A stretch of DNA of 64,000 nt from a virus (IMGVR_UViG_3300018050_002226); one strand, 5' to 3'. Numbered from the stretch's first letter, positions 10,274-33,476 are shown. Notes: a model not told the origin generated them from the letters alone. Program-made: numbers and translations.

Positions 10274-10918
10274 TTATTTTACTATCCACCAAGTTCCCCA
10301 AATTTCGGTTGTTACATCTAATTCATATCCGTACTTTTCACAAAATTCATCAACCGCAGGATTAACTCCGAACACACCACTATAATACATTTTACCTCCG
10401 TGGATATTATACATATGTTTGTCTTTTTTATTGGGAAGGAAATTATTATCACCATACCAATCGATATTGATATAATCATGACCCGCAAAAATTCCACCCT
10501 TCTTAACTTTGGGAAACCAAAGTTCTAAATCTTTTTTTACGTGTTCATAGGAATGATTAGCATCAATATAAACAAAATCTAAAGATTCATTTTGGAACAA
10601 ACTTGAAGCGGTTTCGGAGGTAGCTCTTATTAGGTTTGCCCTATCTTCATTCCCCTTTATTACTTCACAGACTTCCATCATATAACCAAGTTGTTCATCA
10701 TCATTGCAAACATCTGTGTATTCTTCTCCGATTTTTCTCCAAATGTCGATTAAGAACATTGTTCCATTATCCCAAAGTCTCAAAATCTCTTTGGAAAGGT
10801 CGCCACGATAAACTCCAACTTCCGCACCAACTCCTTTACCAACAATGTTATTCAGGTCCCAAATCAAATCCAGTCCACCAACATACTTTCTCCTAAATTC
10901 TTTCATATTATTTTTCAT
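10274..10918 (-). CDS. class I SAM-dependent O-methyltransferase, Methyltransf_24/TylF-like
   Basis: EVGVYRG motif I; DFVYIDANHSYEHV and GGIFAGHDY motifs. Confidence 0.7.
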   Translation of the reverse strand: MKNNMKEFRRKYVGGLDLIWDLNNIVGKGVGAEVGVYRGDLSKEILRLWDNGTMFLIDIWRKIGEEYTDVCNDDEQLGYMMEVCEVIKGNEDRANLIRATSETASSLFQNESLDFVYIDANHSYEHVKKDLELWFPKVKKGGIFAGHDYINIDWYGDNNFLPNKKDKHMYNIHGGKMYYSGVFGVNPAVDEFCEKYGYELDVTTEIWGTWWIVK

Positions 10919-11204
10919 TTTGTAAAACAGCTTTCAAAATTTCAATTGACTCTTTATCTTGTTGGGTCTTAATTTTTTTATCCATCAATACTTTTAAACT
11001 ATCCATAAGTTGTTTTTTTCTTTCAGAAAGTTGTTGAGTAACTTTTGTTAAAGGTGCTTCAATTGGACCATAAACAACTTGTGTTGGATTGGTTACTGAT
11101 GATACAAATGTCTTTTTGTGGTAGAGCATTTGATAAATCTCTGCGCTGAGTATTGAATCTTTTATCATCTTTTTGACCATCCAAAATCTGATTATTTCTT
11201 TCAT
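10908..11204 (-). CDS. hypothetical protein
   Basis: ORF track. Confidence 0.4.
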   Translation of the reverse strand: MKEIIRFWMVKKMIKDSILSAEIYQMLYHKKTFVSSVTNPTQVVYGPIEAPLTKVTQQLSERKKQLMDSLKVLMDKKIKTQQDKESIEILKAVLQNEK

Positions 11205-11225
11205 GGGACAAATATACTGAAAAAA

Positions 11226-11825
11226 TCAATATGGATAATCATACCCGAACATTTCAAGATAATCTTTTGCCACATATTTTATATGTTCAATCATATCTTT
11301 TGTATAAAACTCTTTTTCTGCGTCACTGAAAAAAGTACCATTCATTCTTTTTTTACATAAATCATATAAAGCACCTGATTGACATATTTTTGAGTTGTAA
11401 ACGAAAGGAATTTTTATATAATCAGTCCACAGTTGCTCAACTCTAATCGGATAATCAGGTTTTCTATCTTGGAACATGATAAAACCCAAATCAAAGTTTC
11501 GTTCTGACTTTTCATGAAAAAAATTTCTGAAATTTTTGACAGTGAATTCATCTTTATTTGTTAATCTGTACTTGAATTCTGATACAAGTTTTGTGAAAGG
11601 ATTTCTTATGGTACAGATGAATTTGTAGTTATCGTGTCCTGTAAATAAATCCATAGCGTGATTATGACTCAAAAATTTTTCTCTCAAATCACTACCACCA
11701 GTGCTTTTAGTAACAAAATCAAAATGATTGAAAATAAAAGAAGCATGTAACGAACCAGTTTTAGGTGGCATCCACAAAAAGGCTTTGTTTTTTTCTGAAA
11801 TATTTACAGTATAGTTGTTTTTCAT
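11226..11825 (-). CDS. carbohydrate-type sulfotransferase-like protein (paralog of 22159..22758)
   Basis: 5'-PSB-like PPKTGS and 3'-PB-like RNPFTKLVSEF motifs. Confidence 0.6.
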   Translation of the reverse strand: MKNNYTVNISEKNKAFLWMPPKTGSLHASFIFNHFDFVTKSTGGSDLREKFLSHNHAMDLFTGHDNYKFICTIRNPFTKLVSEFKYRLTNKDEFTVKNFRNFFHEKSERNFDLGFIMFQDRKPDYPIRVEQLWTDYIKIPFVYNSKICQSGALYDLCKKRMNGTFFSDAEKEFYTKDMIEHIKYVAKDYLEMFGYDYPY

Positions 11826-13027
11826 ACAAATACTTTTGGAATTTCATCCCAATCTGTCGTAAACTTCTGTGAAATAAACTCCTGTCTCATTTCCCAATTC
11901 TTTTCAACATTTACAGGTGGTTGAACAATTTGTATTGAACTTGAAAACAATGTTGCCTGTTCAACATTCTCAGGCATTAATTCATTGAATATAATTCCAC
12001 ATTTTTTATACCTTTTTCCGTTTTTAAACATTTTTTTAAGGTGTGGATAAATTTGAGACCAAATTTGATTTATATCTCGGGTTTGTTGTTGAAATAATAT
12101 TTGTCTACTCGAATAATGTTTTTCATCCTTGTGTTTATTACCTGCCATGAAAATGGTTGCTCTATTTGGAGATATTCCATTATCTTCCAATTTTTTAACT
12201 CCGTTTTTAACATATGAATACATAGCCTCCGCAATTTGGTCAAAAGAATCAATGTCCTGTCCAAACGAACGTGTCGAGGCCACATTTCTTTTTAATTTTG
12301 GGACAGGTTGAATGGGATGACAATACATTCCAAGGATTTCCATTTTTGTTTTTAGACCGTTCACATTCATCATTTTTCTAACAAGTCCATCATTCAACAT
12401 AACAAATTGACCGATACTTTCAACACCAATCATTTTTAATTTCTTTGACCACTTTCTACCAATCCCCCAAACTTCGTCAACTGAAATATTATAAAGTGAA
12501 TTTCTAAAATTTTGTAAATTCCAATAAGAACAAACCCCATCATATGATGGTTGTTTTTTTGCAATGTGTGAAGTTAGTTTAGCTAAAGTTTTATTTGGTC
12601 CTACTCCAATTGAAACGGGAATACCTGTAAGTCTTTTAACTTCATTTCTTATTAGGTGTAGTCGGTCTAACAACTCTTCTGATGGGATGTTCGAGAAATC
12701 GACAAAACATTCATCAATTGAATACACTTCAACTTCATTCGCATACTTTTTTATGACCGTCATTACTCGGTCTGACATATCTCCGTATAGATTGTAATTA
12801 GAAGAATATACACAGAACCTGTGTTCTTCCATAAAATCCTTTTTTTGGAAGAATGGTTCACCCATCTTTATTCCGAGGTCTTTAGCTTCTTGCGAACGTG
12901 CAATTACACATCCATCGTTGTTTGATAATACGACAGTTGGTTTTCCGATTGATACGGGATTAAATACTCTTTCGCAACTTACATAGAAATTGTTACAGTC
13001 TACAATACCAATCTTTTTATTTTCCAT
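11822..13027 (-). CDS. umuC: Y-family translesion DNA polymerase, UmuC-like
   Basis: near-colinear match to UmuC N-terminus: VDCNNFYVSCERVF..KPTVVLSNNDGCVIARS..SSNYNLYGDMSDRVM..YSIDECF. Confidence 0.9.
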   Translation of the reverse strand: MENKKIGIVDCNNFYVSCERVFNPVSIGKPTVVLSNNDGCVIARSQEAKDLGIKMGEPFFQKKDFMEEHRFCVYSSNYNLYGDMSDRVMTVIKKYANEVEVYSIDECFVDFSNIPSEELLDRLHLIRNEVKRLTGIPVSIGVGPNKTLAKLTSHIAKKQPSYDGVCSYWNLQNFRNSLYNISVDEVWGIGRKWSKKLKMIGVESIGQFVMLNDGLVRKMMNVNGLKTKMEILGMYCHPIQPVPKLKRNVASTRSFGQDIDSFDQIAEAMYSYVKNGVKKLEDNGISPNRATIFMAGNKHKDEKHYSSRQILFQQQTRDINQIWSQIYPHLKKMFKNGKRYKKCGIIFNELMPENVEQATLFSSSIQIVQPPVNVEKNWEMRQEFISQKFTTDWDEIPKVFV

Positions 13028-13239
13028 CAGTAATAAACAATTATTTCCCCAGAATTGTGTGCAGGGACCTCAAAATTATAACCATTTTTTCTCAAAATGT
13101 CTACAACCAACTGGCTCATTTTATCAGACTTACCAGTGATGATTTTAACAGGAAATTTTGGTTCATTTAAGAACAAAAAATTCTTAACTTCCAACTCTAC
13201 ATCGTGATGAAGAAACCCGTGAAGGTCTAGCTTCTCCAT
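13027..13239 (-). CDS. stand-alone Smr domain protein
   Basis: LDLHG ... IITGKS motifs. Confidence 0.6.
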   Translation of the reverse strand: MEKLDLHGFLHHDVELEVKNFLFLNEPKFPVKIITGKSDKMSQLVVDILRKNGYNFEVPAHNSGEIIVYY

Positions 13240-13451
13240 AGTTTAGCGTTTTTATAAAACCAAAAAATATGGATTGTCATTACGGTTAGATTTACAACGA
13301 TTAATGGTCCGTCCATTTTTATCAAACCATAAATCGCCCAAGTGGATGTTGCCAAAAAGTTTGTAACTCTTAATCGGAGCATGTCTTTGAAAAGGAATGA
13401 ACCAATGACAAGTGCAGTTGCAACCCAACCAATCAAATCAACTAAATTCAT
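13227..13451 (-). CDS. small two-TM membrane protein
   Basis: hydrophobic segments. Confidence 0.4.
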   Translation of the reverse strand: MNLVDLIGWVATALVIGSFLFKDMLRLRVTNFLATSTWAIYGLIKMDGPLIVVNLTVMTIHIFWFYKNAKLWRS

Positions 13452-14053
13452 ATTTTGTATTTTAATTTTGAATAAGTTCGTTTCATAACACTCTTTACCT
13501 TTTCGAGGTATATCATTCTATCATTTTGTCCAACAAAAGGAACCGACCAAAATTGAACAACTTTTTGTCTGAACCAACCAAAACAAAATGAATAGACACC
13601 CATAACAAGTCTTAATTTTACTGAATTGAGATAGATTGTGTGTACAGGAAATGCGGGTGCTCCATGCGTCAAAAATGTTATGACTTTTTTATCTTTTAAT
13701 AGTGGAATTGGAATTCCATATTCCTTTGTTATTGGTCTAAACTTGTAGGCAAAGCCTGGTGTAAGAACTTTATCAAAAAATCCTTCAATCATCGGTGTCA
13801 ATCGGAACCACCAAACGGGTGAAGTTATTACAATAATATCAGCCTCACTGATAAGTTCTTGATACTCCAAAACTAACTGTTGGTTTCTTTCTGTTTCATT
13901 TTCTCTGATTATTGGTTCAAAATCCTCTTCATACAAATCAATGTTGATTACTGATATGTCCGAACTTGTTAATGAGAACTCACTAACAGTTTTATGGATT
14001 GCATGATTGAAACTGTTTTTATTGGGATGGCCAATGATGTTTAGTATTTTCAT
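13448..14053 (-). CDS. flavodoxin-like NAD(P)H:quinone oxidoreductase (KefF/MdaB-like)
   Basis: MKILNIIGHPNKNSF ... ITSPVWWF ... FAY motifs. Confidence 0.65.
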   Translation of the reverse strand: MKILNIIGHPNKNSFNHAIHKTVSEFSLTSSDISVINIDLYEEDFEPIIRENETERNQQLVLEYQELISEADIIVITSPVWWFRLTPMIEGFFDKVLTPGFAYKFRPITKEYGIPIPLLKDKKVITFLTHGAPAFPVHTIYLNSVKLRLVMGVYSFCFGWFRQKVVQFWSVPFVGQNDRMIYLEKVKSVMKRTYSKLKYKI

Positions 14054-14054
14054 T

Positions 14055-14372
14055 TTATAATTTATTTAAAATCCAATTTACCCTTCCCCACACATTTGTT
14101 TGTCCTTCAAACTTTCTAATGATAAAGTGTGACTTCTCAGTTAACACAACCAAATCATCCGTCTGTGGCTCAATAGAACGGTCTATAACGAGGATATTTC
14201 CTGTCTTAACTCCAAGTGTGTTTGGACCCATATAACGGAAATAAAAGGTCGTAAATGTGTTCTGAATGATTAAATCATTAAGGTCAAGTCGTTTGTCCAC
14301 ATAAGACTCGGCAGGTGAGGCAAAACCTGTGGTTCTTGACTTGATTTGAAGGTCTTGTGTTAGGGCACTCAT
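14055..14372 (-). CDS. umuD: UmuD'-like polymerase V accessory subunit (short N-arm, Ser nucleophile replaced)
   Basis: GFASPAESYVDKRLDLNDLIIQ aligns with UmuD GFPSPAADYVEQRIDLNQLLIQ; GDSM replaced by GPNT. Confidence 0.7.
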   Translation of the reverse strand: MSALTQDLQIKSRTTGFASPAESYVDKRLDLNDLIIQNTFTTFYFRYMGPNTLGVKTGNILVIDRSIEPQTDDLVVLTEKSHFIIRKFEGQTNVWGRVNWILNKL

Positions 14373-14430
14373 AATACAAAAATAAATCTTATTCTTTTAA
14401 TTTCAAAATTTTTTATTTAATCTTGTAATT

Positions 14431-14694: not shown

Positions 14695-14721
14695 TATTTA
14701 TCCTTATAAAAACATTTCAAT

Positions 14722-15087: not shown

Positions 15088-15092
15088 ATCAA

Positions 15093-15968: not shown

Positions 15969-17060
15969 TTAGTTCTGTAGAAGTTCTTCTGTTTTTTTCA
16001 ACGCCTGTGCAATGATTTGGTGCATGTCGTAATAAACGTATCTTGCTAAACGTCCACCGAATATGAATTTGGTTTCATTGTTTGCAAGATTTTCATATTT
16101 GAGATAGATTTTTGTATTTTCCTCATCTCTTATAGGATAAAAGGGTTCATTACGACCAGTATAGTTTGTTGGATATTCATAACTTACGATTGTGCCCTTT
16201 TGTTTTTGGTAGTCAAACCATTTGTGTTCAAGTATTCTAGTATATGGTGTTTCTTCGTCAGTATAATTGACAACAGGTACACCTTGATGATTATCAGTTT
16301 CTAAAGTGTGAGTAGACCATTCCAAACTCCTGTAGCCTAATTTTCCAAATTCGTAATTGTAGAATTTGTCGATGGGTCCAGTGTAAATTATTTTATCAGC
16401 AATTTGGTCGAAGTATTCTTTGTTCTCGAAGTAATCTGTGGAAGTTCTTACCTCAACTCCCTCTAACATTTTTTCAAAGATTTGAGTATATCCTCCAACA
16501 GGTATACCTGTGTATTTGTCATCAAAATAATTTGAGTCCCAAGTATATCTTACAGGTAATCTTTTAATTATTGATGGTGGTAAATTTTCACAAGAGGTGT
16601 TCCATTGTTTTTCAGTGTAACCTCTTATTAATTTTTCGAAGATGTCAAAACCCACCATTGAGATTGCCTGTTCTTTCAAATTAGTAATTTTACCTGAAAA
16701 AGACTGGCCTTTTATAATTTGACTGGCCTCTTCAGGAGAATTTACACCCCAAAGTTGATTGAATGTCCACATATTGAATGGTAAGGTGAACATTTGACCT
16801 TTATAATTTGCAATTACATTATGACAATACTGTTTGAAGTAAGCGAATTGGTTTACGTAATTCCATATTTTGTCATCGTTGGTATGAAAGATATGAGCAC
16901 CGTATTGATGAACGTGTATTCCATTTTGGTTTGAGGTATAACAATTTCCCGCGATATGATTTCTTTTATCTATGACCAAACATTTTTTTCCCGCCTTGTT
17001 CAGTTCATATGCGCAAACGGACCCAAAAGGGCCCGCTCCGACTATCAAAAAATCATACAT
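15969..17060 (-). CDS. glf: UDP-galactopyranose mutase
   Basis: FAD-binding GAGPFGS N-terminus; length and conserved blocks typical of Glf. Confidence 0.9.
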   Translation of the reverse strand: MYDFLIVGAGPFGSVCAYELNKAGKKCLVIDKRNHIAGNCYTSNQNGIHVHQYGAHIFHTNDDKIWNYVNQFAYFKQYCHNVIANYKGQMFTLPFNMWTFNQLWGVNSPEEASQIIKGQSFSGKITNLKEQAISMVGFDIFEKLIRGYTEKQWNTSCENLPPSIIKRLPVRYTWDSNYFDDKYTGIPVGGYTQIFEKMLEGVEVRTSTDYFENKEYFDQIADKIIYTGPIDKFYNYEFGKLGYRSLEWSTHTLETDNHQGVPVVNYTDEETPYTRILEHKWFDYQKQKGTIVSYEYPTNYTGRNEPFYPIRDEENTKIYLKYENLANNETKFIFGGRLARYVYYDMHQIIAQALKKTEELLQN

Positions 17061-18212
17061 TTAGAATTCGAATTTGAAACTTGAATTATCTATGATAGGA
17101 GTTTCCATCCTTTTAATTATTTTTTCTCTATATTCAAACAAATAATTACTTGTGTTCGCATAAGCTCTATCCTCAATTAAGAAAGAAGAGTTAGGGAAAG
17201 GATTTTTTCTTTCAGGTTGAACCATATATTCAATATTTTTCAATATCTCATCAAATCTCTCTAATTTTTCCAAAATGAAATTTGCATATATTAAGTGTTC
17301 ATTTCTGTTGGGTGCGAACTCTCCAGCTTTATTCATGTATTGGAGGGATTTTTCAATTTCACCCATAAATTCATACGCGTGAGCCATCATTATTAGTGCG
17401 AAATATCCCATTTCATCAAGTCTTGTTACACTTTTGGTAATATCCCATTGGAAATTATATTCGAACCATCTATCGTAATACCAAACACTTCTTCTAGCAT
17501 ATTCGTCAGCGTGTTTTTTTCCGAAAGGAAGTTGTGAAAAGTCTCCGTAACAATCAGAGTAACTTTTTGCAATATACCACAAATGATAAGGGTCCTCAAG
17601 GACGGTGTTACCAACCACCTTGTCCATTTCAAGTTCCAACGCATCTTTGAGAAACTTTCTCGGTGCAGCCCATGTTTCACCGTCCTGAGATACAAGATGC
17701 CTAAAACCACTCGGCATTGTAATTCTTACAAATCCTTCACCAATTTCGGGAAGATGAATTGTTTCATGACGTTTATCGTGTTGGAAGAACCATGGTCTTT
17801 TAGCATTCCAAAACCAAGTTCTGAGATATCTTAGTTCACCATTCTGAGCAACCATGTTGAAACTGTCTATTGATGTATCTTCCAAGACACTCCAATCAAA
17901 ATCAGGGTCAACGTGTAACCTTTCGTCAGCGTCCATTCTTAGAATCCAATCACATCCATGGTCAGACTTCAAACATGTTTGTAAGGTGTGGTCTCTATTC
18001 CAACCAGGAAAATTCCATTCAATTTGATAAGTAAAACCAGGTTTGTTTTTACTATTGAAAAAATCTTGAATAATTTTTTCTGTGTTGTCATTTCCATTAC
18101 ATTGGATAACCCAATAGTCAATGTACGGTTCAGCGGATTCTAACATCCTCAAAATGGTTTTGGACTCATTTCCAACCATTGCATTCAAACAAATTTTTGT
18201 TTTCTTACTCAT
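17061..18212 (-). CDS. family 2 glycosyltransferase (candidate galactofuranosyltransferase)
   Basis: NESKTILRMLES; RMDADERL (DxD); adjacent to glf. Confidence 0.6.
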   Translation of the reverse strand: MSKKTKICLNAMVGNESKTILRMLESAEPYIDYWVIQCNGNDNTEKIIQDFFNSKNKPGFTYQIEWNFPGWNRDHTLQTCLKSDHGCDWILRMDADERLHVDPDFDWSVLEDTSIDSFNMVAQNGELRYLRTWFWNAKRPWFFQHDKRHETIHLPEIGEGFVRITMPSGFRHLVSQDGETWAAPRKFLKDALELEMDKVVGNTVLEDPYHLWYIAKSYSDCYGDFSQLPFGKKHADEYARRSVWYYDRWFEYNFQWDITKSVTRLDEMGYFALIMMAHAYEFMGEIEKSLQYMNKAGEFAPNRNEHLIYANFILEKLERFDEILKNIEYMVQPERKNPFPNSSFLIEDRAYANTSNYLFEYREKIIKRMETPIIDNSSFKFEF

Positions 18213-19452
18213 AAATGTAGTTCATTACTTCTTCTTCTTTGTAATACTTTCTAATGGGAACTCTGTTTTGAAATCTTTGTGAATGTTTTGTTTCTTCATC
18301 CCAATTCCAATCTTTGAACCCAAGCTCAAGTATACGGTTATGAATTGCCTCATCATAATAATCTCTTATGAGACGGGCTCTTCGGTTTATATCTGTTGCA
18401 TTATTATCAACTGTGCTATTTCTATTGTTGTATTGTAAGTACAAGCATTTTTTTACGTGTATAATTCTTGTATGAAGAAAACTTCTTATAATAATTTCAA
18501 AGTCATCAGCAACGGGCGTTGTCTTGTTATGACCTCCGATTGAATGATAGAAATTCCTTTCCCACATCCTTACATGGTTCGGCATTGAAATATTGAATCT
18601 AATAGATAAAGGATTGATATCTGGATACCAATGAGCCAATATATCCGTTCCGTCTACTTTCACCCAACTATGTCCCGCATAACCGAAATCAAAATAGTTG
18701 TCGTGGCGGGCATACCAATTTCCTGTCCAATCATGGTCATAATGTTTCATTTCACCATCATCGTAAAGCTCAGCGACGTCTGAATATAAAAACCCAGAAT
18801 CAGGATGTTTTTCTATTGCAGCATTACAAGTTGATAAACAATCACTTGTCAAATAATCATCATGGTCTAATTCAACCAACCAGTCTCCATCACTGAGAGA
18901 AGCCGCTCTGTTCTTAGCTAATCCAACAATTCCACCCGAAGTGGGATAAATTCTATGAAGCTTTACTCTATAATCTTTTTTTGAGATTTCAACGAGTAAT
19001 TTCCAAGTTTCCTCATCAGGAGAGTCGTCAACAACAACCCATTCCCAATTAGTCCATTTTTGATTTTGAAGACTTTTATAGGTTCTTTTAATTCTTTCAC
19101 CTGTTTTGTAAACAGGAGTAAAAATTGAAAACCTTGGTCTTTGAACTTCACAAGATTTATAAACCGCGTTTTTCACTATTTCATTTGCAAGTTCATAATC
19201 ATTAAGAGGTTCATCAAAATGTGAATGTATTCTTTGTAATTGATAATGTGGTAAATCTATTTTTTTACCGAACGAAATTATTAGGTCTGGTCTATATTTG
19301 GTGTAATCTTCTAACCAACTCGATGAGTCCGGTAAAGAAAAAACCATAACTTCATCCCATAAACCCTCTTCGGTATAGATGTTACTTTCTAAAACTTCTT
19401 CACCTAATTTGTACCATCCGTAGATGATTGCACTTGGCTTTTTTGTAATCAT
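18205..19452 (-). CDS. family 2 glycosyltransferase
   Basis: FTPVYKTGERIKRTYKSL; VVDDSPD; ELDHDDYL. Confidence 0.75.
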   Translation of the reverse strand: MITKKPSAIIYGWYKLGEEVLESNIYTEEGLWDEVMVFSLPDSSSWLEDYTKYRPDLIISFGKKIDLPHYQLQRIHSHFDEPLNDYELANEIVKNAVYKSCEVQRPRFSIFTPVYKTGERIKRTYKSLQNQKWTNWEWVVVDDSPDEETWKLLVEISKKDYRVKLHRIYPTSGGIVGLAKNRAASLSDGDWLVELDHDDYLTSDCLSTCNAAIEKHPDSGFLYSDVAELYDDGEMKHYDHDWTGNWYARHDNYFDFGYAGHSWVKVDGTDILAHWYPDINPLSIRFNISMPNHVRMWERNFYHSIGGHNKTTPVADDFEIIIRSFLHTRIIHVKKCLYLQYNNRNSTVDNNATDINRRARLIRDYYDEAIHNRILELGFKDWNWDEETKHSQRFQNRVPIRKYYKEEEVMNYIYE

Positions 19453-22158: not shown

Positions 22159-22758
22159 TTATTTTTCATAACCCCAAATCTCAAAATGATGAGCACATAA
22201 ATCGTAAACGATATTTTTCATGTGTTCATCATAATAAGGTTCCCAATCATAAGGTGGTTTCTTATGTTTAAGTTTTTCAGTAATCTCATCAAACGTGAAA
22301 ACATCAAGGATGAAGGGTAATTTCATATAATCCTCAAGTAAATTTTCAAGTTTCAATAAATAATTTGGTCTAACTTTTAACCTTGGATTCGTTATGTATG
22401 CCTTAGTGAGGTCATCGTAATCCTGATTTTGAACCCATTTGAGATATTCCCTGAAAGTCTCTTTTGTATTCCCTTTATATTCAGGAGGAAAACCTGTAAG
22501 AGAAAGATAGATGGAAAGTACCCTCGAATATGGATTTCTAGCGGTGGATATCAAAGTATAGTCGTTGAATCTTTCATTCATTCCACAATAATGAGTGTAT
22601 ACCCACCATTTACCGTTGATAAGTGGAACTTCTCCGCGTTCGAAACCATAATTTGTTAGAAACTTCGCAGATGTACGCGAACCTGTTCTTTCAGGTAACC
22701 AAACCAATGATTTATATTTTTCGGAAACGTTGTAGGATTCGTGAAAATTGACATTCAT
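22159..22758 (-). CDS. carbohydrate-type sulfotransferase-like protein (paralog of 11226..11825)
   Basis: LPERTGS and ARNPYSRVLSIY motifs. Confidence 0.6.
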   Translation of the reverse strand: MNVNFHESYNVSEKYKSLVWLPERTGSRTSAKFLTNYGFERGEVPLINGKWWVYTHYCGMNERFNDYTLISTARNPYSRVLSIYLSLTGFPPEYKGNTKETFREYLKWVQNQDYDDLTKAYITNPRLKVRPNYLLKLENLLEDYMKLPFILDVFTFDEITEKLKHKKPPYDWEPYYDEHMKNIVYDLCAHHFEIWGYEK

Positions 22759-22947: not shown

Positions 22948-23368
22948 GACAAACCTGTCCTGACCCTTCTACGTAACCAATTCTCATATCAATATGTGTG
23001 GAGCGTTTGTAAGGAGTTTCTTTTCCACAGATAACACATTTGTCAAACTCATCTTCTGTTTTAATTTCTTCACTTATACGACACCCTATGTGGTCCCATC
23101 CTGCCAAGTAATCTGAGTCAACACCACTTGTATCTTTTCCACAGATGGAACAAACCCACGGTCTACCGATTGATTTAACCAAACCATCATCCCCGATGTT
23201 CAAGAAAAAGTGTTCATCATCACGAGGAGGACCCTCTTGATTTCTTCTTTCTTGCCAATATTTGTTTCTTACAAGTCCACCCAATTCAAAATCATTTGAT
23301 GTTTGCAAAATTTCTTTTTCGGTTACGGTTACAGTTATGTTCATAAACTTTTTTTTAAAAAAATACAA
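22928..23368 (-). CDS. Cys-rich putative zinc-binding protein
   Basis: CSICG, CVICG, CHEC motifs. Confidence 0.45.
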   Translation of the reverse strand: MYFFKKKFMNITVTVTEKEILQTSNDFELGGLVRNKYWQERRNQEGPPRDDEHFFLNIGDDGLVKSIGRPWVCSICGKDTSGVDSDYLAGWDHIGCRISEEIKTEDEFDKCVICGKETPYKRSTHIDMRIGYVEGSGQVCHECYNK

Positions 23369-23420
23369 TCTTACTTCTATAAAAGAAAGGTATTTATTTA
23401 AAAGAAATGAAATTTTTAAG

Positions 23421-24284
23421 ATGAGTCAAAAAGCAAAAATAATTGCATCCAAATTAAAAAACAACATCCGTGGTGATATTCAAACTCCACAGGATATGTA
23501 TAGTCTTTTGGTCAGAGTTTTCAAAAGACAGGAAGATTATTTTTCTAATTTGGACCCTGTAGACTTACTCAAGATAGTTCTTTATACATACTTTCTTAAA
23601 AAAGAAGGTTCTTTTGATGGAGCAGATAAAATAATGGAGGAATTGGAATTCATAAAATTATTTTCTTTGTCTGAATATTGTACTGAAGTTGAATGTGAGG
23701 AATGTGGTGGTAGTGGAAACGTGGATTGTCAAGAGTGTGATGGTAGAGGCGAAGAAAAATGTTATGAATGTAGTGGAGATGGTGAAATAACCTGTGATGA
23801 ATGTGATGGAAGTGGTAGGGAGGAAACGGAGGATGGGTCTTTAGAAGATTGTGATGAGTGTGGTGGACGAGGGAACTTAACTTGTCCTGACTGTGGAGGA
23901 GAGGGTACAACATCTTGTTCAGTTTGTTCAGGAGATGGTCGCGAAAGTTGTGACGAGTGTCAAGGCAACGGTGAGGTAGTTAGTGATACCCATAAGGATG
24001 CAGAAATATTATTTGTTTGTAGTTGGGACAAACAATTCAACAATAAATGTGAATTAGAAGAACAAACAATTTATCCAGTTATGGATGACAATGAGTTTAA
24101 TCAGTTGTCAGATAAAATTACGTTGAATAAAACAACCATTTCCATTGAGCCAAATGATGATATAGAACCATACAAATTATACTGTGTTTCAATGACTGAT
24201 ATCCCAGACCTTACTTTGAGTCATTCACTTGAAATAATACCAACAAGAGTTAGAGGTGAGTTAAACTTGTACGGGAATCAATAA
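23421..24284 (+). CDS. protein with ~9 tandem CxxCxGxG (DnaJ-type zinc-finger) repeats
   Basis: CEECGGSG, CQECDGRG, CYECSGDG ... repeated; start at internal Met 23421. Confidence 0.55.
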   Translation: MSQKAKIIASKLKNNIRGDIQTPQDMYSLLVRVFKRQEDYFSNLDPVDLLKIVLYTYFLKKEGSFDGADKIMEELEFIKLFSLSEYCTEVECEECGGSGNVDCQECDGRGEEKCYECSGDGEITCDECDGSGREETEDGSLEDCDECGGRGNLTCPDCGGEGTTSCSVCSGDGRESCDECQGNGEVVSDTHKDAEILFVCSWDKQFNNKCELEEQTIYPVMDDNEFNQLSDKITLNKTTISIEPNDDIEPYKLYCVSMTDIPDLTLSHSLEIIPTRVRGELNLYGNQ

Positions 24285-25654: not shown

Positions 25655-26218
25655 TTATTCCATTACCGGCAAAATTCCTGATGGATTTTTATAAGAGTCT
25701 CCCATAATTCTATAAGTTACAATTTCTCCTAAATCAGGAAAGCTTATTTGTTCCACCACAATACCCCACTTTTCAACTTCATTATTAACAGCCGGTGTAA
25801 CGGTGTTACCAAGTTCATAAAGGTCACTCCAATTTGAGCTTTCTACCACGTCTCGAATAATACCTTGTGTTGTATCAATTAAAACATCATTCGCGTGCAT
25901 TACGCCCAAGAGAAATTTTTCAACGTCATCAATGTGATAACGGACAATACTCGAAAGAACGACACTTTTTTCATCCAAGGATGTCACCGTTTGAGGTTTT
26001 AAGTTTACCGTTTGGGTAATGACAGGAGTAGTTAAAATTTGGTCAAAAAAAGGGATTTTCCAGTTCAAACCAGGAAGAACTACTCTCAGAAACTTTCCGG
26101 TTCTAAGATGAACTCCTTGTTCCCATTGGTCTACGATTTTCCAAGGTAAAATGTCATTAATAAAAGTAACGATTAGGTCAATGAGTTTGTCAAACATATC
26201 TTTTCTTTTATGATACAA
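25655..26218 (-). CDS. SPFH/band-7 (prohibitin/HflK-like) domain protein
   Basis: VDQWEQGVHLRTGKF..VLPGLNWKIPFFDQI..IVRYHIDD pattern. Confidence 0.6.
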   Translation of the reverse strand: MYHKRKDMFDKLIDLIVTFINDILPWKIVDQWEQGVHLRTGKFLRVVLPGLNWKIPFFDQILTTPVITQTVNLKPQTVTSLDEKSVVLSSIVRYHIDDVEKFLLGVMHANDVLIDTTQGIIRDVVESSNWSDLYELGNTVTPAVNNEVEKWGIVVEQISFPDLGEIVTYRIMGDSYKNPSGILPVME

Positions 26219-26275: not shown

Positions 26276-27316
26276 TTAGAATTCGGTGTCTGCACTTGCA
26301 ACCCTTGTAGTTGGTTTTGTTGTGGTTTCAGAATTAGAAGGTTGAGAGTTTGCACCAAATTGTGATTGTGCGAACTTTTGGAAACCTTTAGATGCGCTTG
26401 GGATTTGAGCTTTAGGTGGAGTTGTATCAATTTTCGTGGAAGATTGAGATTGTGTTGTATCTACTTTTGATGAAGTTGTTGTATTTGTAGTAGGAGATGA
26501 ATTAAGATAATTTACCCTTTGAAGTTTCCACCATTTATTTGTTCTCGGACCAAATTTACCATAACCTTTAGGGACGCTACCATTCAGAACTTTGTATTTG
26601 TCATGCCAACCCTCATGGTTTTTATCTAACCAATCTTGGAATTTTTTTACACCCTCGATGTCTTTCAATTCTGATGGAATTGGAACAGCTTTTTTAGGGG
26701 CAACTGTTTGTGAATTTTTCTTATCAAATAATTTGTATTCATCCACTTCTGAAGAATCAACATCTGTTATTTCAACAACACCAGGTTTAGTTTTACTACA
26801 TTTGTATGTATACTTGTACTTATCCCCACTTTCGACATATATTGCTTTTCCGTCAGGCCAAAATCTCCAAACGTGAACCGGTTTTCCAATGCCGTCAGAG
26901 CTTACTAAAGCTGTTGTGATTTCTTTATATTCTTCACCGTTGAATCCAATACAAGATACATCTATTTTGAGGTTTGCCGCTTGAACACCTTGTTGTATAG
27001 CTTTTCCAACTCCTGTGTCAGAGGTTTGTTTGTTAGCGGTACTTGTATCAACCGCGGAGGTAGGAGTTTGAGTGCCCCCAAAAACAGATTTTAATGTGTT
27101 TGTTTTCAACTTTCCCTGTTTAGCTAAATCGTCAGCTGCTTTGGCTGTCACAGGACCAAAACCTTGAGTTAATGCTGCTTGTTGGTTTGTTGTGAGATTG
27201 GCTTTTTGTTCGAGGACTATCAACTTATTTTCGTTCAAAGTTTTTGATGAATCATAATTCATTCTCAATTTGATTGTTTCTAAAGCCTCCTGAGGCGAAA
27301 GTTTTTTTATGTACAT
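26276..27316 (-). CDS. Thr/Ser/Gln-rich low-complexity protein (start at Met MYIKK; long form would read through a terminator)
   Basis: ORF track 26276..27451 trimmed. Confidence 0.45.
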   Translation of the reverse strand: MYIKKLSPQEALETIKLRMNYDSSKTLNENKLIVLEQKANLTTNQQAALTQGFGPVTAKAADDLAKQGKLKTNTLKSVFGGTQTPTSAVDTSTANKQTSDTGVGKAIQQGVQAANLKIDVSCIGFNGEEYKEITTALVSSDGIGKPVHVWRFWPDGKAIYVESGDKYKYTYKCSKTKPGVVEITDVDSSEVDEYKLFDKKNSQTVAPKKAVPIPSELKDIEGVKKFQDWLDKNHEGWHDKYKVLNGSVPKGYGKFGPRTNKWWKLQRVNYLNSSPTTNTTTSSKVDTTQSQSSTKIDTTPPKAQIPSASKGFQKFAQSQFGANSQPSNSETTTKPTTRVASADTEF

Positions 27317-27340
27317 CGTATTTTTTCTTATAAATACTTC

Positions 27341-27377
27341 AAAAAACAAAAAACCCCAACCGTAGAGACGGTCAGGG
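27341..27377 (-). terminator. strong minus-strand terminator: CCCTGACCGTCTCTACGGTTGGGG hairpin + TTTTTTGTTTTTT
   Basis: seen in sequence. Confidence 0.55.
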
Positions 27378-28349
27378 TCAGGCAAAAAACTCTGAGAATA
27401 CAAGCTTTGTTGAGAATCTTTAGAAGGATTATTTATTCCCTCCGTTTCCACTGTCTTTTGAACAGTAACTCTCAGTGACGGTCAATTAGATTAACCAATC
27501 CTTAAATCGTTGAATACTCTCTCCTTACTCATCACTCTTCGAGGTTGCCACCCCAATTCTTCCTTGCGGGAATAGAGAACTTTCGTGAAAATCGTGAAGG
27601 GCTTGGGACCCAACACGGTCATGAACATCTCAAGACTATGTAGTCACCTGTTTCCAACGACTGACAGACACTTTTCCTTGATTTTAATTATAAGTTGTTA
27701 AACCAGAATTAACAATTAAGGGTTGGTTTACGGATGTGGAAAGTAGCGGTCTGTCACCAGCCGTGTCGCCTTTTGAACGACACGATACTAAACTACTCTC
27801 TGAAGTCTCCCGACCTCCATACTTCAAGTCAACTTCAGTGATACGCTCTTGGTAGAGACGTTTCAAGGTTAATAACAGCACCACCTGTACATCAACTTAC
27901 CTTTCGGTTTTAAGTCAACTTTCATATTGAATTACGTGATGACTATGGTGGAAGCCATAATTTCTCACATAGATTCCTCAGGTTATTCTTATTAGTCTTC
28001 CGACCTCAACGAGACGACCCGTATCGCCCCGTATTCCAACCACTTTCCCTACAGTGTTACCCTCAGTACTAAAGGTCAGAACATATCCTGATTGCCTACT
28101 CGAGTACCCCTTTGATACCGCAGAACACTAAAACCTGGTGTCCCACTTTATACTACTTTCGTAGTTTATTTAATGACCATAGGCGGCCAATATCTTAAAA
28201 CAAAGAACTATCAAGTATTGAAGGAGAGTGGAAATTTTTTACAACCCCCGACTTCGGTAAGGAACTTTACAACCCTTTTCCTTCAACTGTCTTACAAAAT
28301 TAAGAAGAACTTTTCAATTCGTCAAATTTTTATAAAACTTTTTTTTTCG
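27378..28349 (-). ncRNA. candidate large structured non-coding RNA directly 3' of tRNA-Met on same strand (identity unknown)
   Basis: ~970 nt with no credible ORF in a gene-dense genome; visibly higher GC; many local hairpins; bounded by tRNA and terminator. Confidence 0.3.
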
Positions 28350-28422
28350 TTGCATGGGTCAGAATCGAACTGACGACCTCCAGGTTATGAGCCTGGCGAG
28401 CTACCGCTGCTACTACCATGCG
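28350..28422 (-). tRNA. tRNA-fMet: tRNA-Met (anticodon CAT), initiator-like (C1.A72 mismatch)
   Basis: 73-nt cloverleaf built by hand: acceptor CGCATGG/CCATGCA, U8, D-loop GG, anticodon loop CUCAUAA, T-loop TTCGATT; CCA not encoded. Confidence 0.85.
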
Positions 28423-29225: not shown

Positions 29226-29311
29226 TTGTATTTATTATTGTGTTTGTCAAAATTAACAAAAATATTTTTAAAACAAAAGTTCTAACCGATAAAAAATCTC
29301 AAGCAATTGGG

Positions 29312-29587
29312 ATGATGGGTAAAACTTTCAATAAAGACTTTGAAGCTCTTTTATTTTTGATGAGTGGGAACAAACAATGTTTTTGGATGAAAAATTGTAT
29401 TATACCCTTAGATATCATAATGATAAAAAATAATGTAATTGTTAATATTCACTCTGATTGTCCTCCTTGCGATGAAGACCCTTGTCCAACATATTGTGGA
29501 AATGGAAATATTGTTTTGGAGTTACCGGGAGGTTATTGTGATACTGTTGGTATAGAACCCGGCGATTGGGTTGAGTATCATTTTTAA
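29312..29587 (+). CDS. DUF192-like protein (true start may lie upstream at a non-ATG codon to include a TM helix)
   Basis: FWMKNCIIPLDIIMI ... VLELPGGY pattern. Confidence 0.45.
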   Translation: MMGKTFNKDFEALLFLMSGNKQCFWMKNCIIPLDIIMIKNNVIVNIHSDCPPCDEDPCPTYCGNGNIVLELPGGYCDTVGIEPGDWVEYHF

Positions 29588-31008
29588 TTTGACACTTCTT
29601 TTTCTTTTTGTTGTTCCTCTTGAATTTTTTCTTTCAGTATATTGAAAAATTTTGTTCCGAGTTGTTTCATGAATTTAATATACGGAACATCTGGCTTGTC
29701 AGGGTCGTATCTGTATGGGTCCTCTGATGGTCTTGTCTTTCTTCCAAGAAAATTTAGACCTGAAATATTCGTGATACACTTGTGTCCTCCTGAGTTAGAT
29801 TGAATAAAATCCCACATATTAATTCCAATCTTGTCCAAAAGTTGTTTTTCTTCTTCTTTGAGTTCTGAAAAAGGTTTGTCCATCATGGGTTTTATTCTAT
29901 CTAAAATTTCGTTACCCCCATCAATAAATGCAATTTTACCACCGAAAAGGGCATTGAAGTCTTTGAATGTAAATCCAACATCACCTGGTTTGGTTGATAT
30001 TTCACTTAACCATTTGATTGTCGAAAGGGGGATTGTTCTTGATTTGAGTTGGCTTTCAAAAGGTTTCAGAACGTCCTGAGCCATCTCTCCCAAATTAACT
30101 CCTTTCAACTTTCTATCTTTTTTGAAAGGGTTACATGAGACTTGTAAAAGTCCCATCGGCCACATTAGAATTAAAAAGTCCGCATTCGGATTTACTCTGA
30201 AAGGAGTGTATCTATCGTAAGAACCTGACTTCATACTTCCCGCACCATACTGAAAAATTATTCCGTCTTCTACTCTTACCTTGGGATATTTTTTCATTTG
30301 TTCCAAGTAATCATCGGACCTCTGTTGGAGAGTAGCGAAGTCTTCAGCACTTGTCATTTTCATCCATTTCTTGATGTTATTGAAAATAGACATGAGGGAG
30401 GGTTCTGAGTCCATAACCAAACTCTCCATAAACCCTTTTCGGTTTTTGAAAGCTAAAATCAGTTTGTTGATAACCAACCCAAGTAACATTTTATTTTTCT
30501 GAAGGGTCTTATCTTTATCTAATCTAAAGATATAATTTACAACATCCTCTGGTGTGATTTCATGTTTCAAAAAGTTAGCTGAGTCTACAGTACTGATTAA
30601 AAGTATATCAGCGGTTGGAAATATTTCCTTAGGTGAAACAATTTGAGATATTGTTTCAACGTTCGAACGGGCTTGTCTGAATGATTTAGAAGCCTCAGGT
30701 TCTGCACCAACCTGCCTATCGTGGTGGTCAGTATGAATAACAAACATCGGTTTACCGTGTGCGAAATCTACGAGCACTGGCATTGTATCACCTTCAGCAT
30801 CCAACTTTTTAACTGCAAATTCCTTGTCCCCATATTGAATGGTATGTGCTCCAACGACCTTGATACCATTGTCCTCAAGGTATTTTTTCATTGCAATTGC
30901 GGTGGTCACCCCATCAAGGTCAAGGTGAAAATAAATTTCGGCTTTTGGGTATCTTTTCCTCAAAGCCGAAATATCTCTTAAACCAGACTCTTTTAATAGT
31001 TTTTTCAT
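29584..31008 (-). CDS. DHH/DHHA1-family phosphoesterase (NrnA/RecJ-like)
   Basis: HLDLDG, FAHG, VIHTDHHD motifs; C-terminal SGGHK (GGGH-like). Confidence 0.6.
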   Translation of the reverse strand: MKKLLKESGLRDISALRKRYPKAEIYFHLDLDGVTTAIAMKKYLEDNGIKVVGAHTIQYGDKEFAVKKLDAEGDTMPVLVDFAHGKPMFVIHTDHHDRQVGAEPEASKSFRQARSNVETISQIVSPKEIFPTADILLISTVDSANFLKHEITPEDVVNYIFRLDKDKTLQKNKMLLGLVINKLILAFKNRKGFMESLVMDSEPSLMSIFNNIKKWMKMTSAEDFATLQQRSDDYLEQMKKYPKVRVEDGIIFQYGAGSMKSGSYDRYTPFRVNPNADFLILMWPMGLLQVSCNPFKKDRKLKGVNLGEMAQDVLKPFESQLKSRTIPLSTIKWLSEISTKPGDVGFTFKDFNALFGGKIAFIDGGNEILDRIKPMMDKPFSELKEEEKQLLDKIGINMWDFIQSNSGGHKCITNISGLNFLGRKTRPSEDPYRYDPDKPDVPYIKFMKQLGTKFFNILKEKIQEEQQKEKEVSN

Positions 31009-31301
31009 TTTCTTTTTTCTATCAAAAGGATTTCATGTTTTTTCCCTCTCTTATCGTACCCGTAATATTTTCCATCTTTTGAAAATTCAAACATAAATTT
31101 ACCTTTTGGTAAAGATGTTTTTACTTTAAAGATTTGGTCTTTCCCCATTTGAGAAAAAATAGTCAATATGTCTCCAATCAATTCTGCCTCAGCTGTTTGA
31201 CCAGGATTCATGAATAGTTCGAATTTTTTTTGTTCAGAGATAACCCTTTTTACAAGATTAATTAAGTCACCTTCGGTTAGTCTTACAATTTTTTTTGCCA
31301 T
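31005..31301 (-). CDS. hypothetical protein
   Basis: ORF track. Confidence 0.45.
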   Translation of the reverse strand: MAKKIVRLTEGDLINLVKRVISEQKKFELFMNPGQTAEAELIGDILTIFSQMGKDQIFKVKTSLPKGKFMFEFSKDGKYYGYDKRGKKHEILLIEKRK

Positions 31302-31672
31302 TAGTATTTGAGTGTTAATAAGTACTTAGATTTATTTATGAGACCCAACATCTCATCTCTAATGTTGAGTAAGTCTGTATCATATCTTGAATCGAGTTGG
31401 TCTGACATCCCAACAAAAAATTCAGTAATTCCATCTATGAAATTCTGCATACTCAATGCAGAAATATCTTGAAACATAATTCCGAATTCAGAGTCAAACT
31501 CAGGTCTTCCATATTTTCCCATCATTGTTTCAGTGAACTCATCTATCAATTCTCCCAACTTATCGTAGATGTCTCCATAAAGTCTGTGTTTAGCATCTCC
31601 AAAAGTTTGCCAATGTAAAAATTTAAATTGAAGTTGAATTTGAACGAGTTTTTTAATGAGTTCTTCTTTCAT
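31301..31672 (-). CDS. hypothetical protein (start at Met MKEEL; longer form overlaps upstream terminator)
   Basis: ORF track trimmed. Confidence 0.45.
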   Translation of the reverse strand: MKEELIKKLVQIQLQFKFLHWQTFGDAKHRLYGDIYDKLGELIDEFTETMMGKYGRPEFDSEFGIMFQDISALSMQNFIDGITEFFVGMSDQLDSRYDTDLLNIRDEMLGLINKSKYLLTLKY

Positions 31673-31703
31673 AGAAGTAATTTTTCTATAAATATCTTGA
31701 GAA

Positions 31704-31727
31704 TAAAAAAAGGGGTTTTTAAACCCC
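31704..31727 (-). terminator. terminator hairpin GGGGTTTTTAAACCCC + T-run overlapping stop of methyltransferase gene
   Basis: seen in sequence. Confidence 0.45.
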
Positions 31728-32582
31728 TTCTTCAAAATCTAATTTAGATTGTTTCTTTTTATCGATAAATTGTTGAACTCTCTTTTTAGCAATTTCACAA
31801 TAGTTCGGACTGAGTTCAATACCTACCCAGTTTCTTCCTGATATTACTGCCGCAACTGGAGTTGTACCAGAACCACAGAAAGGGTCTAAAACGACGTCAT
31901 TTTTGTAAGTGAGTATCTTCATAGCTTTCATTGGAATGTCCAAGGAAAAGGTTGCTTTGGTCATTTGTTTAGTGTCTGCAAAATATGTCCACTGTCCATA
32001 AACCAAATCCATAAACTCTTTCTTCTGTTCTTCAGTATAGAGAGTTTTTTTCTTTTTCGTTCCATCCTCTTGTTCAATCTCATCAATCACCCCAACCCAC
32101 TCGGGTTCTCCCTTAACAATCTTAATATGTTTAGACTTGTAAGCCAAGATAACACACTCTTTCGGATTGTAGATGTAAGGTGCAGAAGGAGACATCCATG
32201 AACCCCAAGCCGTTGTCTTACTTCTATGTGGAGAATCTTCATCTAAATCCACAATACCATAAAATTTAAAACCAATTCTTTGCATAATCTGCCAAAGTTC
32301 AGAGGCAATAAAAACTCTACCTCCTTTATCCTGTCGATTGATTTCATAAGGAACATTAAGAGCAATTCTACCATCCGCCTTCAGAACTCTATAAGCCTCG
32401 GTGAGCCATTTCTTTGAAAAGTCTTTGTAGTCCTCTATGTTCATATCATCATCAAATGAATCATATTCAATACCCACTCCATAGGGTGGTGAAGTAACAA
32501 TAAGGTCAATAGAGTTTTCAGGCATTTTAGCCATCTCAATTATACAATCACCATTTATTATATTTCCTAAAAAATTTTCCAT
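31719..32582 (-). CDS. DNA methyltransferase, beta-class N6A/N4C (SPPY)
   Basis: DLIVTSPPYGVG (motif IV) precedes VLDPFCGSGTT (motif I). Confidence 0.85.
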   Translation of the reverse strand: MENFLGNIINGDCIIEMAKMPENSIDLIVTSPPYGVGIEYDSFDDDMNIEDYKDFSKKWLTEAYRVLKADGRIALNVPYEINRQDKGGRVFIASELWQIMQRIGFKFYGIVDLDEDSPHRSKTTAWGSWMSPSAPYIYNPKECVILAYKSKHIKIVKGEPEWVGVIDEIEQEDGTKKKKTLYTEEQKKEFMDLVYGQWTYFADTKQMTKATFSLDIPMKAMKILTYKNDVVLDPFCGSGTTPVAAVISGRNWVGIELSPNYCEIAKKRVQQFIDKKKQSKLDFEEGV

Positions 32583-32653
32583 TATAACAGTTTAATAATT
32601 CAATTCTAATGATTTTTTTCCACTAAGTCCAGTAAATTGAAAAATATTTTCCA

Positions 32654-33055
32654 TTATAATTTTCCTTCCTGTCTCATTTGTTCACGTATTTTCGTTGCAG
32701 AAATATCATGAACTTCTTGAGGTGGTACATGTTCAATGATATCATATCCAACTCCTCGGCCGAAGTTTACTGATTCGATATCAGGAATCGTAATTACTTT
32801 AACCCTTTCCTCACCAATAAGTTGCCAAAGTTCCTTCTTAATATTTGTCTCAACTTCTTGTGCGGTGAACGGATTTTTTTCATCTGGTTCAATGTCTCTA
32901 ATACAAATTAGAACATTTTTACCTTCTTTTATAATTTCATCCACAATCCATTTGTGACCCCCATGAAAAGGCTGAAATCTTCCCACGAACATAGAGTATT
33001 GTTTACCCCCCGTGTTCTTCAATTTTGGGTCTCCTTCAACGTGAAATTTTTGCAT
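32654..33055 (-). CDS. HxGH nucleotidyltransferase, archaeal-type NMN adenylyltransferase (NadM)-like
   Basis: VGRFQPFHGGH ... NPFTAQE ... ISATKIR colinear with NadM. Confidence 0.6.
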   Translation of the reverse strand: MQKFHVEGDPKLKNTGGKQYSMFVGRFQPFHGGHKWIVDEIIKEGKNVLICIRDIEPDEKNPFTAQEVETNIKKELWQLIGEERVKVITIPDIESVNFGRGVGYDIIEHVPPQEVHDISATKIREQMRQEGKL

Positions 33056-33476
33056 ATTCTAATACTTTTTTAGCTGAGTCCTCAACACTTTCATTTGTTG
33101 TGTCGATGTCAAGGTAATTTTCGGTTGGTTGTCCATATTCTTTAACGAAGAAATCTTCTCTTCCTCTTTTTTCAGAAGTATGTATATAAACCTCCACCAA
33201 TTTATCCCCCATCTTTTCTTTGAATTTATCTCTTTGGTCTTTATAGGGGGAAACCAAAGATACTAATACATCTTCACCCTTGTTTGTGAGATACTGAGCA
33301 ATTTGTTGTGCTAACTCAATGTTTTTTCTTCTACCTTGTTCAGAGTAGTCTTTGTTTTCAAATAAATCTCTAAGGTCATCTCCATCGATGTGGAAAAAAC
33401 TGGCATCTCTAAGTAAAATTTTTTTACAAATTGTTGTTTTACCCGCACCGGGTTGGCCTGTTAACCAAATAATCAT
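33036..33476 (-). CDS. cysC: adenylylsulfate (APS) kinase
   Basis: IIWLTGQPGAGKTTI (P-loop), HIDGDDLR, VLVSLVSP, VEVYIHT colinear with CysC. Confidence 0.8.
   Translation of the reverse strand: MIIWLTGQPGAGKTTICKKILLRDASFFHIDGDDLRDLFENKDYSEQGRRKNIELAQQIAQYLTNKGEDVLVSLVSPYKDQRDKFKEKMGDKLVEVYIHTSEKRGREDFFVKEYGQPTENYLDIDTTNESVEDSAKKVLEYAKISR

Follow-up and report, generated by a model that had tools for sequence, protein, structure and literature searches.

The 64,000-nucleotide stretch of DNA named IMGVR_UViG_3300018050_002226 (referred to as a whole as the window) raises the question of whether a phage can supply its own sulfate donor and spend it on a glycan or on its particle. Sulfation by sulfotransferases that depend on 3'-phosphoadenosine 5'-phosphosulfate (PAPS) is well known in cells. 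The window, a stretch of 33% GC from an uncultured large phage, has nearly all of its genes between 10 and 38 kb on the minus strand. Among them are a short kinase of the adenosine 5'-phosphosulfate (APS) kinase family, an overlapping nucleotidyltransferase, two minimal sulfotransferases (ST1 and ST2), and sugar-building enzymes. From this combination, it is probable that the phage makes PAPS itself and sulfates a glycan or a virion component. Related metagenomic contigs extend up to 146–321 kb, and the source is rather likely to be a widespread clade of large uncultured phages with their own sulfation pathway.

The first step toward an answer is the identity of the kinase (33036–33476, minus strand, 146 aa), a P-loop protein that matches Pfam APS_kinase (PF01583) at 7e-19 and 68.8 bits, against a cut-off of 21.1. 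In the set of solved structures, every one of its 19 best hits is an APS kinase or a PAPS synthase, the top one at 1e-11. The Walker A motif GQPGAGKTT near the N-terminus aligns to GxxGxGKST/T of the solved APS kinases, and three further segments align column for column with 8a8h, 7yq0, and 5cb6: IDGDDLR with LDGDxxR, YSEQGRRKNI with FSxxxRxxNI, and VSPY with ISPY. The residues of LDGD(N)xR, of the aromatic-Ser...R..N segment, and of SPY are presumably the APS contacts. Homologues in Marinimicrobia, described below, keep the substrate-segment motifs, with VSPY replaced by APY. The kinase has 5092 homologues, of which the top 120 are all at least 80% identical and 142–155 aa long.

Three features speak against a standard APS kinase, and the lid and the equivalog score among them count against the proposed pathway. 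Only positions 4–112 of the 152 in the Pfam model are covered, the lid is shortened to EKRGREDFF (~12–15 residues fewer), and the score under the NCBIfam equivalog model apsK (TIGR00455) is 73.8, below the cut-off of 138.7. At 146 aa versus 173–211 aa in the solved chains, the full-length domain with its mobile lid is absent. The sequence-only reading had called this protein an APS kinase with strong CysC-like colinearity; the family and the APS motifs hold, and the colinearity is partial. Since the protein passes the Pfam threshold and carries the APS motifs, yet misses the equivalog cut-off, it is best described as an APS-kinase-family protein with a truncated lid and a predicted APS kinase activity.

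The second step concerns the partner of the kinase, a gene that the sequence-only reading had omitted. The open reading frame at 32654–33055 (minus strand, 133 aa) shares 20 nt with the kinase gene and encodes an HxGH nucleotidyltransferase (CTP_transf_like, 2e-7) with the motifs GRFQPFHGGH, GRGVGY, and ISATKIR, the first and last of which are invariant or nearly so in an alignment of this mini HxGH transferase family (A5). It resembles archaeal and NadM-type nicotinamide mononucleotide adenylyltransferases (NMNATs) at 6e-13, a similarity that is limited to residues 21–95 in the N-terminal half and that misses both model cut-offs (48.6 versus 127 and 41.4 versus 181). With 133 aa versus 168–181 aa in NMNATs, it is 35–50 residues shorter, and the C-terminal substrate half is divergent.

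What such an enzyme might do next to an APS-kinase-family protein can be read in two ways. We tentatively regard it, with a confidence that stops short of favoring the idea, as a candidate sulfate adenylyltransferase. The role is attractive because the coupling or fusion to the kinase parallels PAPS synthases and because NMNATs, too, transfer an adenylyl group from ATP to an oxyanion. The profile searches count against it: a profile of the transferase family found no ATP sulfurylase among PDB matches to E 10, and NMNATs were its only strong PDB matches. The protein does not belong to the Sat/MET3-type ATP sulfurylases either, CTP_transf_like being its sole Pfam family. Because NadM and archaeal NMNATs are its only significant relatives, the pair could instead serve nucleotide or NAD salvage, for example as a nicotinamide-riboside kinase with an NMNAT or as another kinase/adenylyltransferase two-step unrelated to sulfation, while the sulfotransferases would use host PAPS. 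A NUDIX gene ~4 kb downstream in the conserved block fits such a role. Against it, the kinase matches APS kinases specifically, with the APS-contacting motifs kept and no match to NadR-type ribosylnicotinamide kinases, and the shortened, divergent C-terminal half of the transferase departs from NMNATs. The genomic context of the pair, discussed below, bears on the same choice.

The third step is the use of PAPS. ST1 (11226–11825, minus strand; PPKTGS and RNPFTKLVS) and ST2 (22159–22758, minus strand; PERTGS, H56, and RNPYSRVLS) are both 199 aa long and are paralogues with 25% identity (BLASTP, E 2e-13). ST2 scores 18.8 against Pfam Sulfotransfer_2, under the cut-off of 22, and ST1 has no Pfam match. 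An AlphaFold2 model with a mean predicted local distance difference test (pLDDT) score of 92 has the P-loop-like alpha/beta fold of sulfotransferases. A profile of 67 diverse members (alignment A3) matched only sulfotransferases in the PDB, the best at 1.5e-4, aligned at the 3'-phosphate-binding motif RNPxxxxxS, which corresponds to RNPKDxxVS of SULT4A1 and SULT7A1. R74, P76, and E138 are invariant in A3, and H56, N75, and S82 nearly so. The 5'-phosphosulfate-binding loop P-x-K/R-T-G-S is kept in close relatives, with T25, G26, and S27 invariant only in the alignment of those relatives (A1). The description of two paralogous sulfotransferase-like proteins with both cofactor-binding motifs is therefore borne out. 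The label "carbohydrate-type" is not established, because the family matches Sulfotransfer_1 (22 of the 67 members) as often as Sulfotransfer_2 (20 of 67), relatives reaching 7e-9.

The mini-sulfotransferase family is large in metagenomes, where the profile search at E≤1e-3 found 4060 representative clusters. A tblastn search detected no homologue in 50,697 GenBank phages, and a single motif pattern taken from a sub-alignment detected no relative in 185,579 one-per-species GTDB genomes. We read ST1 and ST2 as two members of a fast-diversifying family of ~200-aa sulfotransferases that, judging from modeled fold and motifs, would transfer sulfate from PAPS.

Whether the kinase and the sulfotransferases belong together can be judged from their linkage in related phages. 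The kinase and transferase genes are adjacent in all 85 related phage loci, and in 60 of 80 they share 16 nt. Sulfotransferases were counted upstream of the pair in loci that had been seeded by the kinase alone and that offered at least 1 kb of upstream sequence (n = 55; 35 after dereplication). Of the 55 loci, 29 encode a sulfotransferase homologue on the kinase strand and no more than 2.5 kb upstream of the kinase, as do 20 of the 35 dereplicated ones. If 1–4 sulfotransferase genes were placed at random in a genome of 150–320 kb, this position and strand would be expected in a few percent of cases, so that the observed 53–57% is far above chance. The kinase-adjacent sulfotransferases comprise 23 unique sequences, which fall into 10 clusters at 60% identity and are as little as 26% identical in pairs; the kinases in related loci are 72–97% identical to that of the window. 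ST1 is closer than ST2 to these upstream sulfotransferases, with 31–39% identity and E ~1e-30.

The loci share a backbone of kinase, transferase, DNA methylase, DUF5856, DHH, NUDIX, Band7, and orf146, followed by genes for two family 2 glycosyltransferases (GT2), UDP-galactopyranose mutase (Glf), a UmuD-like protein, a flavodoxin-like protein, and UmuC. Up to four slots in this backbone hold sulfotransferases: one upstream of the kinase and, in order, one each behind Band7, orf146, and UmuC. The window fills the last two, with ST2 after orf146 and ST1 after UmuC; in the 317–321 kb relatives, the slot after UmuC holds a tandem sulfotransferase pair. Wherever the sequence of relatives suffices, the ST2 slot leads into GT2-GT2-Glf. 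It should be weighed against the proposed linkage that some relatives lack a sulfotransferase within 10 kb of the kinase (for example, loci L006/L007 and L097/L098) and that the conserved synteny could in part reflect inheritance within one clade rather than selection.

Other genes accompany these slots. In relatives (L017, at 11392–13037; L035; L054; L104), the variable slot upstream of the kinase also holds, by motifs, a calcineurin-like phosphoesterase, and a ~300-aa protein that reads as a fusion of a methyltransferase-like N-terminal part to DUF3310. In the window, the same slot contains only a 76-aa DUF3310 protein (33473–33703). A metallophosphoesterase elsewhere in the window (2296–3054) has no detectable homology to the phosphoesterase whose gene separates those of sulfotransferase and kinase in relatives. 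Between ST1 and Glf, all on the minus strand, lie a UmuC-like Y-family polymerase (11822–13027), a Flavodoxin_2 protein (13448–14053), and an S24/UmuD-like protein (14055–14372), an arrangement that is syntenic in the 317–321 kb relatives.

Cellular counterparts of the pair extend the comparison beyond this clade. In six species genomes of Marinimicrobia (SAR406), which are all that were found, the short kinase is 44–49% and the transferase 54–60% identical to the phage proteins. The two genes are adjacent and overlapping in 6 of 6 (L113–L118, at about 8000–8760 in most) and lie inside polysaccharide clusters that encode a UDP-sugar dehydrogenase, a Wzx-GT1 fusion, GT4 enzymes, and a class IV aminotransferase. 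Five loci have a Sulfotransfer_5 gene (1e-50), paired with the class IV aminotransferase, no more than 4 kb from the kinase and transferase; in the sixth, the contig stops at the neighboring aminotransferase. These loci, the upstream sulfotransferases, and the slots of the phage clade are three independent lines that tie the kinase to sulfotransferases, and PAPS supply would best explain why the pair stands beside two unrelated sulfotransferase families in two contexts. The claim that the phage makes and uses PAPS gains from the same observations and from the ST2-GT2-GT2-Glf block. The recurrence of the pair beside these sulfotransferase families, in phages and in Marinimicrobia polysaccharide clusters, also argues against NAD salvage.

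A fused form of the pair exists as well. The PHROG family phrog_10255 ("kinase," 230 aa) is a kinase–transferase fusion, and gp32 of Xylella phage Salvo (Casjensviridae; L119, 15167–15913) is a single 248-aa protein in which a divergent APS-kinase-like domain is fused to the mini HxGH transferase. Salvo gp32 adjoins MazG-like and "topoisomerase" genes. No recognizable sulfotransferase was detected in the Casjensviridae that carry the fusion, which counts against a sulfation role, including the proposed adenylylation of sulfate by the transferase, and, with the neighboring DNA-metabolism genes, favors salvage. From its motifs, gp29 of Salvo (192 aa), encoded two genes ahead of the fusion, had been suspected to be a sulfotransferase; BLASTP against Sulfotransfer_5, a sulfotransferase hidden Markov model (HMM), and the PDB gave no support. 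With the evidence on both sides, we consider the salvage explanation improbable and retain PAPS supply as the more probable role of the pair.

A bolder proposal is possible, although doubtful enough that we offer it tentatively: the mini NMNAT-derived HxGH transferase (113–133 aa) might represent a new class of sulfate adenylyltransferase and, together with the lid-less kinase, form the smallest known PAPS synthase, a host-independent source of donor for rapidly diversifying phage mini-sulfotransferases acting on virion glycans or fibers. If this is true, the smallest PAPS synthase would exist as an overlapping gene pair in jumbo phages and Marinimicrobia and as a 248-aa fusion in Casjensviridae, and the nucleotidyltransferase would found a new family of enzymes that catalyze the initial step in sulfate activation. 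Casjensviridae genes labeled "kinase" and "NMNAT-like" genes in the polysaccharide clusters of Marinimicrobia would then need re-annotation.

The next question is what would be sulfated. Glf (15969–17060, minus strand) is certain by its profile matches (PF03275, 1.4e-73; PF13450 NAD_binding_8 for the FAD-binding Rossmann domain, 1e-22), in agreement with the sequence-only reading. Of the three GT2 enzymes claimed there, two are clear: a 415-aa protein (18205–19452, minus strand; Glycos_transf_2, 8.4e-20) and a third family member outside the 10274–33476 region (1620–2318, plus strand; 6e-14). The protein at 17061–18212 (minus strand) is weak, with Glycos_transf_2 at 1.4e-3 and a TPR-like C-terminal part (TPR_8, 4e-3), both below cut-off; in relatives, its homologue always lies between the first GT2 gene (GT2a) and Glf. 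The plus-strand GT2 gene overlaps that of the calcineurin-like metallophosphoesterase at 2296–3054 (together 1620–3054). A glycan is the favored acceptor, because ST2 shares a conserved block with GT2, GT2, and Glf and because the cellular homologues occur among polysaccharide genes. It would most likely be a galactofuranose-containing glycan, carried either on the host envelope or on a virion protein, for which the Thr-rich collagen-like fibers are an example.

Proteins are a serious rival to a glycan as the acceptor. The pathway would then be real, with collagen-like fibers or other virion proteins being hydroxylated, directly O-sulfated, or both. The window has three consecutive genes for collagen-like tail fibers (40610–50236, minus strand; 1058, 1039, and 1109 aa; PHROG tail-fiber matches to 1.5e-123). 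In each fiber, G-X-Y repeats that have Gln or Thr at Y, mostly G-A-Q and G-x-T, extend over ~800 aa, and the genes have 46–57% GC versus the 33% background. The C-terminal end of the first matches tail-fiber C-termini, with Peptidase_S74 in relatives. These fibers, with many Thr residues at Y, may be regarded as candidate sulfate acceptors. The Ser/Thr-rich protein at 26276–27451, for which composition was the whole basis, is unsupported in that role.

Relatives offer a further argument for proteins. In loci L006/L007, a prolyl 4-hydroxylase (P4H)-type 2-oxoglutarate (2OG)-Fe(II) oxygenase (PF13640; 10442–11197) is encoded between kinase and transferase, and inserts of 764–771 nt separate the two genes in 8 of 80 loci (for example, L090), which hints at hydroxylation coupled to sulfation. 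For bacterial operons that combine a 2OG-Fe dioxygenase, a sulfotransferase, and PAPS synthetase with genes for collagen-like or tail-collar proteins, Iyer et al. (2010, PMC2938197) predicted that these proteins are hydroxylated and sulfated. Against direct protein sulfation, the window open reading frames that were scanned include no 2OG oxygenase, ST2 is syntenic with GT2-GT2-Glf and not with the fiber genes, and the cellular homologues of the kinase pair reside in polysaccharide clusters. We therefore judge a protein acceptor unlikely and prefer a sulfated glycan.

The release of pAp (3'-phosphoadenosine 5'-phosphate) during sulfation raises the question of its removal, for which the sequence-only reading had named a DHH/DHHA1 protein. 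The protein (29584–31008, minus strand, 474 aa) is present as described, with motifs I–IV (DxD, D, DHH, D) and the DHHA1 GGGH motif, and 27 homologues share FHQDLDG, VDFAHG, HTDHHD, VDSADF, and SGGHK without variation. It scores 20.1 against the Pfam cut-off of 28.1. Among the HMM searches that had been suggested as a check, APS_kinase was thus above its cut-off, and DHH, like Sulfotransfer_2 with ST2, was below. A DHH profile had no match among PDB sequences. A role as a pAp phosphatase is plausible by analogy to MtPAPP of Methanothermococcus thermolithotrophicus, a DHH protein encoded beside sulfate-activation genes that acts as a pAp phosphatase (PMC10322725). Compared to MtPAPP and NrnA, two-domain proteins of ~310–330 aa, the phage protein is ~150 residues longer and contains a helical insert as well as a helix at its C-terminus, and its sequence-level match is confined to the motifs.

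Several properties of the DHH protein detract from this assignment. The AlphaFold2 model is poor (pLDDT 59, and <50 in the N-terminal domain), and its length of 474 aa and its helical insert bring the protein as close to archaeal proteins of RecJ/Cdc45 size as to NrnA. It is also a core phage gene with 3938 homologues, occurs in huge phages of 634–642 kb, and has no homologue in the Marinimicrobia loci.

These properties lead to a further alternative, in which there is no common pathway and independent accessory and core genes merely share 23 kb, the DHH protein being a RecJ- or nanoRNase-type nuclease and the class I S-adenosylmethionine-dependent methyltransferase at 10274–10918 (minus strand; Methyltransf_24, PF13578, 9e-17) acting on DNA. 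Weak recJ matches in NCBIfam and the DHH homologues in huge phages fit this view, as do the thousands of close homologues of DHH and kinase, both core genes. The methyltransferase matches phrog_2675, annotated "DNA methyltransferase," and the absence of any homologue from related loci also weakens the case for a shared pathway. The earlier label of a TylF-like O-methyltransferase did not survive, since Methyltransf_24 was the family matched and the TylF-type PDB entry (demethylmacrocin O-methyltransferase) was reached at E 0.34. A methylated glycan is therefore unsupported. In addition, a word-index search returned 20 relatives of ST2 and the slots vary among genomes, yet the wider family comprises thousands of clusters. 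The adjacency of sulfotransferase and kinase far above chance and its independent recurrence in Marinimicrobia make unconnected genes very improbable, and we return to phage-made PAPS as the working model.

In this model, the 133-aa transferase would first adenylylate sulfate to provide APS for the kinase, the pair acting as a two-protein PAPS synthase of ~280 aa; if that role is wrong, APS could come from the host. The lid-shortened kinase would then phosphorylate the 3'-OH of APS to yield PAPS, and ST1 and ST2, on the basis of fold and motifs, would move sulfate from PAPS to acceptors, among which the galactofuranose glycan from the GT2-GT2-Glf block accompanying ST2 is the probable one. Finally, the DHH/DHHA1 protein, encoded ~2 kb downstream of the kinase block, may clear the inhibitory pAp.

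The remainder of the window contains a full-length DnaJ (56484–57401, minus strand; J domain, zinc-finger, and C-terminal domains), a thioredoxin (51324–51824, minus strand), a Dam-type D12 DNA methyltransferase (55281–56138, minus strand), and an N6/N4 DNA methyltransferase (31719–32582, minus strand). The DnaJ is tentatively reminiscent of the freshwater "moraphage" lineage (PMC12619734). It also encodes a 5-fold beta-flower protein (PF21785; 5490–5882, minus strand), a MORN-repeat protein (7968–9542, plus strand), an SPFH/Band-7 protein (25655–26218, minus strand), and a Cys-rich CxxCxGxG-type zinc-finger protein (23262–24284, plus strand). ARAGORN predicts a single tRNA-Met (CAT) gene at 28349–28422 on the minus strand. 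No close relative of the window region was found by megablast among the 50,697 GenBank phage records, the sole match being this tRNA, which is 89–95% identical over ~50 nt to tRNA-like sequences of Gordonia phage GodonK and Pseudanabaena phage Pan5. An interpretation of that match as an anomaly inside a GT2 gene was rejected, as it maps to 28362–28417, within tRNA-Met.

The observations describe a coherent, conserved set of sulfation genes carried by large uncultured phages of a very widespread clade. Were a glycan or fiber of the virion the acceptor, its sulfation would decorate virions in a new way and may affect adsorption, evasion of immunity or defense, or particle stability. The rarity claimed earlier for phage sulfotransferases combined with cysC agrees with the literature searched, in which viral "sulfotransferase" genes appear in metagenome surveys as auxiliary metabolic gene ("AMG") labels without analysis, and a description of a phage PAPS-supply-plus-sulfotransferase system or of the kinase–transferase pair was not found.

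Compared to known systems, the phage pair resembles CysC, bifunctional CysNC, and animal PAPSS (APS kinase fused to ATP sulfurylase) in that an APS-kinase-family kinase is coupled by overlap or fusion to an enzyme of nucleotidyltransferase fold, and its product would likewise feed sulfotransferases. Unlike PAPS synthases, the phage kinase has 146 aa and a truncated lid, and its predicted partner in PAPS synthesis is an NMNAT-like HxGH protein of 113–133 aa with no detectable similarity to Sat/MET3-type or CysDN-type ATP sulfurylases. The sulfotransferase family, at ~190–205 aa, differs from Sulfotransfer_1/2/3/5, cytosolic SULTs, heparan sulfate sulfotransferases, TPST, and Stf0 (240–300+ aa), and most of its members fall under Pfam cut-offs. 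In mycobacteriophages, virions are glycosylated by phage-encoded glycosyltransferases (Freeman et al. 2023, as cited in PMC12619734), and the window similarly encodes GT2-type enzymes that could decorate virion proteins. To these it adds Glf, a PAPS-supply module, and multiple sulfotransferases, and the description of the mycobacteriophage system in PMC12619734 reports no sulfation. The operons of Iyer et al. (PMC2938197) are bacterial, with canonical PAPS synthetases and another sulfotransferase family, and their oxygenase was not found in the window; they share with it the combination of sulfotransferases, PAPS supply, and collagen-like or fiber proteins, and a P4H-like oxygenase occurs in some relatives. 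Overall, the system would work as PAPS-dependent sulfation does, with components that are unusual minimal variants placed in a new biological setting.

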